DNA of 4,537 nucleotides from a virus. Lineage: Duplodnaviria; Heunggongvirae; Uroviricota; Caudoviricetes. How positions within the stretch are numbered: the stretch's first letter is position 1; the number at the start of each line of letters is the position of its first letter. Below the pieces are notes generated by a model. That model did not search any database and was not told where the DNA came from. It saw only the letters and a list, made by a program, of their open reading frames with translations. The position numbers and the translations under genes were made by a program. Below, piece after piece: positions 89 to 4,537 of this stretch. The DNA lies in IMG/VR virus record IMGVR_UViG_2724679058_000010; one strand, given 5' to 3'.

Positions 89-1186
89 ATGGCGTACTAT
101 AACATAGAGAAACGACTAAAATCCGATGGCACACCACGCTATCGCTGTAATGTGATTATCAAAGAAAAAGGTGTTATCACTTACAGGGAAAGCAAAACAT
201 TCCCTAAACATGCCCATGCCAAAACATGGGGTACACAGAAAGTGATGGAATTAGATCTATATGGCATTCCATCATCAAATGCAGTTGACGGACTTACAGT
301 CCGTGACTTACTACACAAATATTTAAATGACCCAAATGCCGGAGGTAAAGCAGGTCGTACTAAAAGATATGTGCTGGAACTGCTTATGGATAGTGACATC
401 TCCGCGATCAAACTATCCGAACTGACAGAAAATGACGTAATTGAACATTGTAGGCTAAGAAACAACGCTGGTGCAGGTCCAGCAACAGTCAGCCACGATG
501 TTAGTTATCTTGGCAGTGTTCTGGATGCGGCCAAACCTGTATACGGAATTAATTACACATCAAACCCGGCGAAAAGCGCTCGTCCATATCTACTTAAACT
601 TGGTTTGATTGGTAAATCAAACCGTCGTAATCGTAGACCAGCATCTGATGAACTGGACATGCTCATTGAAGGCCTTCAACAACGATCTACTCATAAATGC
701 TCAAAAATTCCGTTCGTTGATATCCTCAAATTTTCTGTGTGGTCCTGTATGCGAATCGGAGAAGTATGCCGGTTACGATGGGAAGATCTCGACCAAGAAC
801 AAAAATCTATACTCGTAAGAGACAGGAAAGATCCACGCAAAAAGGAAGGCAACCACATGAAAGTAGCCTTGCTTGGGGAAGCCTGGGATATCGTCCAACG
901 ACAGCCCAAAAAATCGGAATTCATTTTTCCATATAACAGCACTTCTGTTACTGCGGGATTTCAGAGAGTAAGAAGCAAATTAGGTATTAAAGATCTGCGA
1001 TACCATGATTTGCGTAGAGAAGGGGCAAGTCGCTTATTTGAGGCTGGCTTTAGTATTGAGGAAGTCGCCCAAGTTACAGGGCATCGTTCATTAAACGTGC
1101 TATGGCAGGTATATACCGAACTGTATCCGAAATCTTTACATAATCGTTTTGAAGAGCTCCAAAAGAGCAGAAATAAGACCTCTTGA
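89..1186 (+). CDS. int: Tyrosine-type site-specific recombinase / phage integrase
   Basis: 365-aa ORF with a GAGG Shine-Dalgarno at 78-81, 7 nt before the ATG. The C-terminal region has the catalytic-domain pattern of tyrosine recombinases (LRYHDLRREGASRLFEAGFSIEEVAQVTGHRSLNVLWQVYTEL, i.e. HxLR ... GHxS ... Y), most reminiscent by eye of Rci/XerC-type catalytic domains. Which integrase subfamily it belongs to is not resolved. Confidence 0.88.
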   Translation: MAYYNIEKRLKSDGTPRYRCNVIIKEKGVITYRESKTFPKHAHAKTWGTQKVMELDLYGIPSSNAVDGLTVRDLLHKYLNDPNAGGKAGRTKRYVLELLMDSDISAIKLSELTENDVIEHCRLRNNAGAGPATVSHDVSYLGSVLDAAKPVYGINYTSNPAKSARPYLLKLGLIGKSNRRNRRPASDELDMLIEGLQQRSTHKCSKIPFVDILKFSVWSCMRIGEVCRLRWEDLDQEQKSILVRDRKDPRKKEGNHMKVALLGEAWDIVQRQPKKSEFIFPYNSTSVTAGFQRVRSKLGIKDLRYHDLRREGASRLFEAGFSIEEVAQVTGHRSLNVLWQVYTELYPKSLHNRFEELQKSRNKTS

Positions 1187-1247: not shown

Positions 1248-1496
1248 ATGCGTATTGAAATCTGTATAGCCAAAGAAAAAATGACTAAAATGCCAACCGG
1301 TGCTGTGGATGCGTTAAAGGAAGAATTAACCCGACGCATCAGTAAACGTTATGACGATGTAGAGGTGATCGTAAAAGCCACCAGCAACGATGGCCTTTCT
1401 GTTACGCGCACCGCCGATAAAGATTCAGCTAAAACTTTTGTTCAGGAAACTCTGAAAGATACCTGGGAGTCTGCTGACGAGTGGTTTGTTCACTAA
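1248..1496 (+). CDS. dinI: DinI-family protein (DNA-damage-inducible protein I homolog), phage-borne
   Basis: 82-aa ORF beginning [11 protein letters not shown] and ending [16 protein letters not shown], which closely parallels the start and the C-terminal ETWESADDWFV signature of E. coli DinI. Shine-Dalgarno AGAGGGA at 1236-1242, and a LexA box immediately upstream. The gene symbol denotes a homolog, not the chromosomal locus. Confidence 0.85.
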
Positions 1497-1562
1497 TTAG
1501 CACGTAAAATCAGTAACGGCTGGAAATCATTCAATACTCGCACTATCGAAAGTTAACCAGCC

Positions 1563-1610
1563 AGCCGCAGTATCCTATCATGACAAGTTACTGCGGCTTT
1601 TTACTTTTTA
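1563..1610 (+). terminator. Putative intrinsic terminator in the convergent intergenic region
   Basis: Perfect 10-bp stem AGCCGCAGTA (1563-1572) / TACTGCGGCT (1589-1598) followed by TTTTACTTTTT. The 16-nt loop is unusually large for an intrinsic terminator, hence moderate confidence. On the minus strand the stem is preceded by an A-tract but not followed by a T-run, so it would be weak in that direction. Confidence 0.5.
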
Positions 1611-1913: not shown

Positions 1914-2192
1914 TCAGCTCCATTCCCGAAGCGGTGTTTCCAGCTCCACGACATAATCAGAGAATACAGAAACATCAAACAAGTCATCAAGAATGCGAAT
2001 GTTGACAAAATAACCATCATTCCGGATACAGACAGGTTCTCCCTCTTCTGTTACCCCTGTTTCTGTGTAGGTGAAACCAATTTCATCAACTAACAGTTTA
2101 TTCTGGAGGTCTTCATCTTCCGCCCAGCCAAGAGATGACAGGAAGGCCTTAAACTGCAGTTTGTCATGAAACTTCAAAGTTAAATCTTTCAT
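1914..2192 (-). CDS. Hypothetical acidic protein (92 aa), translationally coupled to the tail fiber C-terminal segment; possible fiber chaperone/accessory
   Basis: Its ATG (2192-2190) overlaps the stop of the upstream fiber ORF in an ATGA arrangement. The protein is rich in D/E. It has no obvious resemblance to lambda Tfa, which normally ends with a PDIEWPAVP-type motif. Confidence 0.65.
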   Translation of the reverse strand: MKDLTLKFHDKLQFKAFLSSLGWAEDEDLQNKLLVDEIGFTYTETGVTEEGEPVCIRNDGYFVNIRILDDLFDVSVFSDYVVELETPLREWS

Positions 2193-3391
2193 ACGACCTC
2201 TTTTAATTGCCTGTCATTTAATTCTTTATGCCATATGCGGAAATTGCGAATATGGCCAAACAGATGTCGTTCTCCAGTATTCGTCTGCCCTCCAAATCGG
2301 ATATTTTTATCAGCGGTCACGCCATTATATTCACAATAAACTTCATTAACCGCTTTACCATTTGTCACCACATGAAAGTGACCATCAGCTTTTGCAATAC
2401 ATCCAAATGTGGTTTTCTCTGTAAATACATCTGTCGCTGCGCTATTAACATACGAGCCTGAAGGGTTTGACAGACTCATATATAACTTACCACTACCTCT
2501 GTTGATTGCTGCAATTGCTGATTGCCCGGTATTGGCTGCTGCTATATCCCACACGCGGGGTGCGGCGTTTGGTGCAATATCCCAGTTTTTATGAATCTCA
2601 AGTAAAAAAGTAAATGGTAACTTATAAAGATTATTTCTGGTGGGGATACTAACCAAATCACTGGCTCTTGTCGTTGCGCTGCCTCCTGAAATAATAAATG
2701 ATGATACACACGGCCCATTCTCTACTTGTGGGGTGGCAAGATAAATATAGTCACCAGATACTGTTGCCCCACCCTGCTCAGGAGAATACTGTATCTGAGA
2801 GCCTATTTTTAACTCACCATCAATTGCCTGAATCGTTGCCTCTGCAAAAATCCAGCCCGTGGTCTTATCCTTCCTGACTCGTGCCGTAATTCTGCCGGCA
2901 GCACCACCTGTCATATTAATTTCAAGCGTTTGCGTATCAATGTACGCATCGCCAAGAAAAGTTGTTGCACTACCATCATACTTATCAAACCGTATACGTA
3001 ACCTTACCTGTCGTTCTGTTTTAAAACGGCATGAGGTTGTCACGTACTTGTTATCGCCTGAGACATCAACTGACTTTGTTGCAGCAATTGATGCCATATT
3101 AATAGCCGAAGTTTGCCCAACCAGAGAATCGTTGCAGACAAACTTTCCATAAGTAAAACCAAAACTATCCGTCCCGGTTTCGGGCACATCCATGTTTGAT
3201 GACTTCCCCCAGCTGGCTGGACTTTCCGAATTGAGCATGTAGTTCGTTCTTTGTCCCTCAATAAGCAGGCCATCACACTCAAATCGCGGCTCATTAATTT
3301 CCGCCGTTTTCAGTTCGCCAGATTTGTTGATATATGTTGCCGTTGATGCGCGACTGAAATTAACCTGTTTATCACTGGCGACCTGAACCAC
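2189..3391 (-). CDS. Side tail fiber, C-terminal (receptor-binding) segment, with a probable LamG/ConA-like lectin-fold domain at the extreme C-terminus
   Basis: 400-aa ORF. Its frame is open upstream to 3412 (KIAIGDDVV...), and the nearest start is a GTG at 3391 with no convincing Shine-Dalgarno, consistent with a frameshifted continuation of the upstream fiber rather than an independent gene. The C-terminal tail (NIRFGGQTNTGERHLFGHIRNFRIWHKELNDRQLKE) follows the typical LamG closing pattern (F-G-x-I-D-E-V-R-I-Y-N-R-A-L-S-x-x-E-I). Confidence 0.75.
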   Translation of the reverse strand: MVQVASDKQVNFSRASTATYINKSGELKTAEINEPRFECDGLLIEGQRTNYMLNSESPASWGKSSNMDVPETGTDSFGFTYGKFVCNDSLVGQTSAINMASIAATKSVDVSGDNKYVTTSCRFKTERQVRLRIRFDKYDGSATTFLGDAYIDTQTLEINMTGGAAGRITARVRKDKTTGWIFAEATIQAIDGELKIGSQIQYSPEQGGATVSGDYIYLATPQVENGPCVSSFIISGGSATTRASDLVSIPTRNNLYKLPFTFLLEIHKNWDIAPNAAPRVWDIAAANTGQSAIAAINRGSGKLYMSLSNPSGSYVNSAATDVFTEKTTFGCIAKADGHFHVVTNGKAVNEVYCEYNGVTADKNIRFGGQTNTGERHLFGHIRNFRIWHKELNDRQLKEVV

Positions 3392-3405
3392 ATCGTCACC
3401 AATAG

Positions 3406-4251
3406 CTATTTTTTATAGCCCGGAGAAAAACCCGCAATCATATCCAGTGAATCGTTAAACGGTATCCACACATCAGGCAGCGGCGGCACTATATTCGCAT
3501 AGGGCTCTGCAGTCACTTCCGCTGCGGCTTCTGCGCGGTCTGCCGCCTTTTCAGCTCGTGTCGCTGCCGACAGAGCCTCATCCTTTTTCTGCCCGGCCTT
3601 TGTTGCGTCTGCTGCAGCCTCCCGCGCTTTTGTGGTGGCGACTCCGGCATTTTCAGCGGCTGACTCTGCATTACGGCGGGAAGCCTCTTCACTGTCTGCG
3701 GAGGCTTCTTCTGACGCACGGGCATTTGTCTCTGAACGTTCTGCCGCTGTTGCTGCGTTTTGTGCGGCTGTTTTTGAAGAAGCTGCCGCTTTCGCGCTGT
3801 TACCTGCATTCGTCTCTGATGTTTTCGCCGCGTTCCTGGACGATGCCGCTGCTGTTTCTGATTTCTTTGCTGCCGCTGCGCTCTGAGAGGCGGCTTCAGC
3901 GTTGCGTGCCACATCCTCCACCATTACCTCAAAACGACGCAATGCCTCCGGCATGACATCCTCTTCCGTCATGGCACCCAGAAAATCATTCAGCGTCCCC
4001 GGCTTAGAATCCTCATACACGGTGATGGTCCCGGCATGTGAAGGCGGAAAACCTTCAACCAGCAGGATAACGCTGTACTGGCCATACTCGACATCCATGC
4101 TGTAACGTCCGGCTTCATCCGGATTTTCTGAGGCCACCGTGTTCACCACAACCGTGGTGCTGTTACGTTTTGCTTTGAGCTGAATGGTGCAGTTCTGTAT
4201 CGGTTTTCCTGCACCGTCTTTCAGCACACCTGAGATTTTTACTGCTGCCAT
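3406..4251 (-). CDS. stf: Side tail fiber protein, N-terminal anchor domain plus Ala-rich shaft (lambda Stf-like)
   Basis: The translation from the ATG at 4251 (MAAVKISGVLKDGAGKPIQNCTIQLKAKRNSTTVVVNTV...EAGRYSMDVEYGQYSVIL...FPPSHAGTITVYEDS.PGTLNDFL) is nearly collinear with the lambda Stf N-terminus. It is followed by the Ala/Ser/Thr/Glu-rich shaft (AAKTSETNA..., AAERSETNARASE) also found in lambda Stf. The ORF track starts at a GTG at 4257 (MDM...), but the ATG at 4251 is preferred because it has a GGAG Shine-Dalgarno 5 nt upstream and matches the lambda start. Confidence 0.9.
   Translation of the reverse strand: MAAVKISGVLKDGAGKPIQNCTIQLKAKRNSTTVVVNTVASENPDEAGRYSMDVEYGQYSVILLVEGFPPSHAGTITVYEDSKPGTLNDFLGAMTEEDVMPEALRRFEVMVEDVARNAEAASQSAAAAKKSETAAASSRNAAKTSETNAGNSAKAAASSKTAAQNAATAAERSETNARASEEASADSEEASRRNAESAAENAGVATTKAREAAADATKAGQKKDEALSAATRAEKAADRAEAAAEVTAEPYANIVPPLPDVWIPFNDSLDMIAGFSPGYKK
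3409..3414 (-). other. A6 homopolymer (T6 on plus strand) at the frame junction between the two tail-fiber segments
   Basis: Minus strand reads CCG GGC TAT AAA AAA TAG. The downstream frame is offset by -1, so one extra A would fuse the two ORFs. Confidence 0.6.
3486..3900 (-). repeat. Low-complexity Ala/Ser/Glu/Thr-rich coding repeat region (fiber shaft)
   Basis: Protein-level repetition of AAxxSETNA / AAxxAxxAA units. The GCN-rich DNA produces long spurious ORFs in other frames and on the opposite strand. Confidence 0.6.
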
Positions 4252-4262
4252 ATCCACTCCAC

Positions 4263-4315: not shown

Positions 4316-4537
4316 TCAGAATTTATAACCGACACCCACGATGAAACCGTCAGTGCGCCAGTCACCACTGCCGGAACCTTCATAAGCAAGGTCAATGGCC
4401 ACGGATTCGGTCGGGTTAAACTGCACGCCAGCCCCCCACGCCAGAGACGTGTTGCTGTGGCGACCGTCATCACTTCCGGTCAGCACATCGTGCGTTTTCC
4501 CCTTGTTGTCAGTTACGCGGAGATAATCCCCGGAGAA
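4316..4537 (-). CDS. lom: Lom/Ail/PagC/OmpX-family outer-membrane beta-barrel protein, C-terminal part (gene continues beyond the window)
   Basis: The minus-strand translation from the window edge ends ...ESVAIDLAYEGSGSGDWRTDGFIVGVGYKF with a stop at 4316-4318. The terminal aromatic residue and the EGSGSGDWRTDGF motif are typical of lambda Lom-type barrels. Its position immediately upstream of stf matches the lambda J-lom-stf order. Confidence 0.85.
   Translation of the reverse strand, partial: FSGDYLRVTDNKGKTHDVLTGSDDGRHSNTSLAWGAGVQFNPTESVAIDLAYEGSGSGDWRTDGFIVGVGYKF

Follow-up and report, generated by a model that had tools for sequence, protein, structure and literature searches.

What divides a side tail fiber gene into two reading frames at a short run of adenines: a genuine mutation, an error in the recorded sequence, or slippage that shifts the frame during expression? 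The question is raised by a stretch of 4,537 nucleotides (nt), the whole of which is called here the window, from a Caudoviricetes virus record of IMG/VR (IMGVR_UViG_2724679058_000010), in which the side tail fiber gene, stf, is interrupted at a run of six adenines (A6). A first-pass annotation, made from the letters alone, had left all three answers open. As far as sequence comparison can establish, there is one gene from which one base is missing, and the allele is private to this sequence. A recent and real A7-to-A6 mutation, produced by replication slippage in this lineage, is given a probability of about 50%.

Structure of the interrupted gene

The fiber gene lies on the minus strand, and the run in question appears as T6 on the plus strand, at positions 3409-3414. 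The coding strand reads TTT TCT CCG GGC TAT AAA AAA TAG CTA TTG GTG ACG ATG TGG across the junction; the 38-mer that defines the A6 junction is CTCCGGGCTATAAAAAATAGCTATTGGTGACGATGTGG. All relatives have A7 at this place, and the contraction by one base brings a premature TAG stop (3406-3408) into frame. The N-terminal segment (3406-4251) comprises 281 codons plus the TAG, ends ...MIAGFSPGYKK, and is made up of a PF08400 tail-attachment domain, an alanine-rich stalk and the linker PLPDVWIPFNDSLDMIAGFSPGYKK. Its ATG start at 4251 agrees with the annotated coding sequence (CDS) start in Escherichia coli PG20180057; the listing of open reading frames (ORFs) gives a version of 283 amino acids (aa) that starts from a GTG at 4257. 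The C-terminal segment (2189-3412, minus strand), corresponding to the receptor-binding module, is in the -1 frame. This frame, closed just upstream by a TAA, is open from 3412 (K-I-A-I-G-D-D-V-V-Q-V...) to a stop at 2189, and its first start codon is a GTG at 3391-3389, from which 400 aa can be read. The arrangement described in the first-pass annotation, with the gene split at A6, the first segment ending SPGYKK-TAG within TAT AAA AAA TAG and the second open from 3412 at an offset of -1, proved accurate to the base.

Insertion of one A produces an uninterrupted 687-codon ORF with no internal stop, reading ...SPGYKKIAIGDDVVQVASDKQ. That A7 would yield one continuous fiber had been foreseen; its length is 687 aa rather than the approximately 688 aa expected. 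In the repaired protein, residues 3-132 match PF08400 ('prophage tail fibre N-terminal'; E = 1.9e-68), residues 561-682 give a weak concanavalin/LamG-like match, and the phrog_1419 profile spans the junction (residues 195-687), alongside matches to tail-fiber PHROGs. The repaired protein is identical, residue for residue, to a catalogued 687-aa E. coli protein found on 46 contigs and belonging to a 90% cluster of 2,232 members. Since the repaired protein exactly matches a catalogued one and phrog_1419 crosses the junction, the two segments are not a chance juxtaposition. The gene also occupies the position of a side tail fiber gene, downstream of J/lom at the end of the tail gene block, with lom upstream in the window; its frame is interrupted at codon 282 in the window and continuous in all relatives. 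By its sequence, then, the gene in the window belongs to the lambdoid Stf family, but as a disrupted allele.

The fiber gene in relatives

A run of A7 within a single ORF of 686-687 codons is found in phage 21, mEp460, E. coli PG20180057, strain 1290 and FDAARGOS_536; in phage 21, stf is annotated as one CDS of 2,061 bases. Two further copies have A7 at the junction and are damaged elsewhere. In Lambda_4C10 the frame is open at the junction and the C-terminus is cut off by an insertion sequence (IS) element, so that the annotated CDS has 642 codons, and in GU2018_CL13 the gene is broken at another site. In a multiple alignment of the gene, the missing A is the window's sole indel relative to these copies. 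The dusA prophage of PG20180057 is 99.9% identical to the window: four substitutions and the missing A are the only differences in 4,537 bases. Phage mEp460_4F5 aligns with 94% of the window at 99.3% identity, and the fiber cassette of phage 21 has 98.2% identity. Alignment of the junction peptide with intact homologs, a check suggested in the first-pass annotation, found PGYKK-IAIGDD contiguous in every homolog examined. The same annotation had reasoned that homologs with the C-terminal part as a separate gene would point to two genuine genes; all homologs have a single ORF.

In the annotation of hundreds of RefSeq E. coli genomes, PGAP reports an N-terminal pseudogene 'missing C-terminus' that overlaps a 574-aa 'phage head spike fiber domain-containing protein'. 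This split, which occurs for instance at L002 3313-5373 and L005 5189-7252 (two related loci; both intervals are equivalent to window positions 2189-4251), could be mistaken for a natural one. It was considered as a two-gene arrangement and rejected, L002 and L005 both translating as uninterrupted ORFs of 686-687 codons. The split annotation of this fiber in RefSeq is an annotation artifact.

Tract length was surveyed more widely by querying 5,426 complete E. coli genomes with an 80-base sequence containing the A6 junction and with its 81-base A7 version. The A6 80-mer matched 577 records from 576 genomes, all in the 95-99% band, and none of the 577 records contained it exactly; the A7 81-mer was present exactly in 575 of them. 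Strain 20595, the one exception that was examined, lacks the two nucleotides TA at this position (GGGCTAAAAAAATAGC; L008, approximately 2526-2560), with the length of the tract unchanged. Contigs were scanned with a junction pattern allowing A5 to A8: all 72 contigs recovered (37 from IMG/VR, 35 from metagenomes) had A7 and an open frame, typically with 410 codons downstream, and the same pattern found nothing in GTDB species-representative genomes. The 281-, 283- and 400-aa fragments were found neither among approximately 15 billion proteins nor in the gene-position index. When the window was compared with 85 related loci, the only 17-mers absent from all of them were those covering the contraction (3399-3424).

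The junction was also inspected in five distant fibers, each encoded by one ORF: those of the lambdoid phage 2G7b, the Drexlerviridae phage tunus, the Nonagvirus ESCO3, morffagbaw and PhiR41_1. The peptide PLPDVW(I/V)P(F/L)NDSLDMI(A/T)G(F/Y)SP(G/S)YKK(I/V)xIGD is contiguous in all five. The nucleotides encoding the two lysines and the start of the next residue are AAAAAAA in 2G7b and morffagbaw, AAAAAGA in tunus and ESCO3, and AAAAAAG in PhiR41_1. Since the lysine codons differ among these fibers, selection acts on the two lysines and not on a slippery homopolymer.

The break falls in a conserved linker, PLPDVWIPFNDSLDMI(A/T)GFSP(G/S)YKKI (window positions approximately 3410-3480, fiber nt 775-840), that separates the lambdoid N-terminal stalk from the receptor-binding module. 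From approximately fiber nt 775 onward the module is common to unrelated virulent siphophages, with 78-85% DNA identity. The linker has the look of a mosaic recombination joint.

Origin of the missing base

If the deletion is real, translation would stop at the TAG after residue 281; tail-attachment domain and stalk would be retained in the product and the 406-residue receptor-binding part lost. Particles of the prophage would then be without functional side fibers, as are those of laboratory lambda (PaPa) in comparison with Ur-lambda. The A7 of the relatives is the longest homopolymer of the region, all other runs being of 6 or fewer, and a private contraction in the longest run is the pattern expected of both replication slippage and a homopolymer miscall. 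That the gene decays in lysogens is indicated by other copies carrying real-looking disruptive deletions: L049 (-8 and -2) and L053 (-11) have changes unlikely to be consensus errors, and two further apparent frameshifts occur sporadically in complete genomes, in GU2018_CL13 (L006), where a G5 run at fiber nt 1042, equivalent to window positions 3206-3210, is one base short, and in strain 20595, with its TA deletion at the GYKK junction. In the laboratory, side fibers are dispensable for lambda, the common strain of which has an stf frameshifted relative to Ur-lambda (PMC12617516).

Several observations weigh against a real mutation. The window has no private substitution, so that a real mutation would have to be extremely recent. 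No change in A-run length is seen in approximately 650 other copies, and spontaneous change at the tract is therefore not frequent. A protein collection that takes in assemblies of public sequencing runs contains none of the truncated proteins, which is weak evidence that short reads do not support A6. Loss of one base in the longest homopolymer is, moreover, the most typical error of long-read and flow-chemistry sequencing, and on sequence alone a real deletion and a miscall in the consensus look the same. An assembly error in the length of the run, with A7 in the DNA, an intact fiber gene and a split confined to the consensus, is accordingly a strong contender, to which we assign somewhat less than even odds. 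It would account for the fact that across 4,537 bases the sole indel, which is also the sole private difference, coincides with the would-be longest homopolymer, that the repaired protein is exactly a known allele present on 46 contigs, that A6 occurs in no other public copy and that truncated products are missing from a protein collection covering public read-set assemblies. On the other hand, the window contains six runs of 6 and nineteen of 5 elsewhere, all of which agree with the relatives; the source consensus is for this reason not generally poor at homopolymers. Such an error is seen in none of the 577 complete-genome records, and consensus errors at A7 are rare on short-read platforms. 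On balance we infer that the DNA itself, and not just the consensus, lacks the base, and that the particles lack side fibers.

If A6 is real, the deletion might be leaky, with a measurable minority of full-length fiber and sub-stoichiometric side fibers on the particles, a proposal that we consider improbable. Full-length protein could arise if the P-site tRNA-Lys slipped by -1 on A AAA while the ribosome waited at the weak stop UAG-C, perhaps helped by a hairpin 2 nt downstream, or if RNA polymerase added an A. Equally doubtful is a contingency tract, in which A6 would be an 'off' state switching reversibly with an A7 'on' state. Slippage from A7 to A6 and back is mechanistically reversible, and strain 20595 offers a second, independent indel at the same junction (the TA deletion). 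That change, however, leaves the length of the tract unaltered; exactly A7 is seen in 575 of 577 genome records and 72 of 72 contigs, so that no polymorphism among strains, of the kind expected of such a locus, was found; a G interrupts the run in divergent homologs, and seven bases make a short run in comparison with known contingency loci. Much less probable still is evolved recoding, with the A run serving as a programmed -1 frameshift or transcriptional slippage site that sets the ratio of truncated to full-length fiber. It is physically possible for the P-site tRNA-Lys to slip by -1 from AAA to the overlapping AAA, which would put AUA (Ile) in the A site and yield the wild-type peptide, and a hairpin does begin 2 nt past the TAG. 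Yet no homolog shows the two-frame arrangement, the propagated phages 21 and mEp460 included, and divergent homologs do not conserve the run (AAAAAG in tunus and ESCO3). The zero frame, UAU AAA AAA UAG, contains no canonical X XXY YYZ heptamer, a U preceding AAA AAA; in a tandem slip the P-site tRNA would have to pair with UAA, leaving only a single-tRNA slip at A AAA beside the stop. Neither a conserved two-frame layout with a slippery sequence nor a canonical heptamer, the features looked for in a programmed site, was thus found. Considered as a stimulator of frameshifting, the hairpin could not be told from shuffled sequence: the 90 nt downstream fold at -18.1 kcal/mol against a shuffled mean of -17.5 (z = -0.24), a stability equaled or exceeded by 75 of 200 shuffles. 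No Rfam family reached its gathering score in a scan of the whole window. Efficient transcriptional slippage usually needs about nine A's, as studies of IS elements and of Thermus dnaX indicate, against the six of the window and the seven of its relatives. Because functional phages have A7 in frame, the run is unconserved and the tract is invariant in approximately 650 other copies, slippage as an evolved feature is not supported; it drops out of the three options left by the first-pass annotation, of which sequencing error and genuine frameshift both remain. The frameshift is not programmed; background slippage would be the only source of full-length product. Least credible of all is the existence of two genuine genes, one for a stalk protein and the other for a separately translated receptor-binding protein. 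The GTG at 3391, 14 nt past the TAG, is preceded with a 4-nt spacer by a Shine-Dalgarno-like GGUGA (3396-3400, minus strand), and some re-initiation is conceivable. Pairing of GGUGA with the 3' end of 16S rRNA is calculated at -7.2 kcal/mol, compared with -6.9 for the true start of the fiber, -7.0 for the 92-aa gene that follows it and a strand-wide mean of -3.7; the site ranks in the top 10.6% of positions on the minus strand (18 nt upstream scored). The first-pass annotation credited the C-terminal segment with only a GTG, and its statement that no credible Shine-Dalgarno sequence is present was too strong. GGUGA nevertheless merely encodes a conserved Gly-Asp and is an incidental by-product of these codons. 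The two-gene arrangement is seen in no homolog, all having a single ORF and a contiguous peptide, and the C-terminal piece, lacking the PF08400 attachment domain, would have no evident way onto the tail. The two-gene interpretation was rejected on these comparative data.

The practical value of the case lies mostly in annotation. The pair of ORFs is best treated as a single frameshifted stf with a flag for possible sequencing error; neither a two-gene nor a recoding-site label is appropriate. Should the deletion be real, particles would be without side fibers, and adsorption rate and host range would be affected as in lambda PaPa. No new biological question is opened.

Genomic setting

Sequence comparison identifies the window as the left end of a lambdoid prophage of the mEp460/phage 21 type that integrates at dusA. 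Three complete E. coli genomes show the dusA start codon directly adjoining the sequence aligned to window position 1; in them the integrase and DinI-like genes, both on the plus strand, are followed on the minus strand by a 95-aa gene, a 92-aa gene, the fiber gene, lom and J. In the window, a tyrosine integrase of 365 aa (89-1186, plus strand) lies at the dusA end and is followed by a DinI-like protein (1248-1496, plus strand). In near-identical prophages PGAP annotates a remnant of a 'capsid protein' pseudogene, 81 nt long and interrupted by a stop (1493-1573, minus strand), which sits between the DinI-like gene and the 95-aa membrane-protein gene. The 3' part of lom, encoding an Ail/Lom outer-membrane protein (4316-4537, minus strand), is upstream of stf and is cut by the end of the window. 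The order is J-lom-stf in PG20180057 and J-stf in phage 21 and mEp460.

The 92-aa gene (1914-2192, minus strand; phrog_1361) has an ATG that overlaps the TGA of the fiber gene as ATGA, and no Pfam match was obtained for it. It is always found together with the C-terminal module of the fiber, and a gene of the same size lies 3' of this module in lambdoid phages, Drexlerviridae (tunus, morffagbaw) and Nonagvirus (ESCO3). The 92-aa gene is a candidate for a fiber assembly chaperone that travels with the receptor-binding module.

In phage 21 and in many extraintestinal E. coli, among them CFT073, UTI89, 536 and Nissle, the cassette of fiber, 92-aa and membrane-protein genes is followed by the iron/manganese transporter genes sitABCD (L001 5731-8058; L002 6046-8312); the window has dinI and int instead. 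A literature search on phage 21, the side tail fiber and sitABCD found nothing.

Comparison with known systems

The closest known counterparts are the stf genes of phage 21 (OL657228, CPT_21_22) and of the mEp460/dusA prophages (WP_148885940.1 in PG20180057), which represent the same gene with 98-99.9% DNA identity over the fiber. In the window and in the E. coli dusA prophages stf is preceded by lom, whereas in phage 21 and mEp460 it directly follows the J-type tail fiber gene. The downstream 92-aa and 95-aa genes are shared with all of these, and DinI and the integrase also match in mEp460 and the dusA prophages. Those copies differ from the window at the junction, with A7 and a single ORF of 686-687 codons; in the window, which has A6, a stop follows codon 281.

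A parallel to the interruption itself is provided by lambda PaPa, in which a frameshift relative to Ur-lambda, said to have been described by Hendrix and Duda in 1992, likewise splits a lambdoid side tail fiber gene into two ORFs (orf-401 and orf-314). As there, the gene is frameshifted relative to an intact ancestral form, in the present case through loss of a single base that all relatives retain. The N-terminal domain is homologous to that of lambda: the phage 21 annotation reports a BLASTp match to orf-401, and PF08400 matches. By analogy with lambda PaPa, side fibers would be expected to be lost without loss of viability (PMC12617516). The two cases differ in the position of the frameshift within the gene and in the C-terminal receptor-binding module, which in the window is concanavalin/LamG-like and common to Drexlerviridae and Nonagvirus fibers, as opposed to the T4 gp37-like tip of the lambda PaPa comparison. 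Furthermore, the lambda case is experimentally verified, whereas that of the window is known from one sequence and may be an artifact.

With programmed -1 sites, such as those of dnaX (A AAA AAG), IS911 and lambda G/GT, the window shares a run of A's in lysine codons on which tRNA-Lys can slip. It differs from them in having no conserved two-frame layout, no in-frame heptamer, no significant stimulatory structure and no conserved run. The interrupted stf is an ordinary case of pseudogene or error, of a kind already familiar from lambda, and involves no new mechanism of expression.

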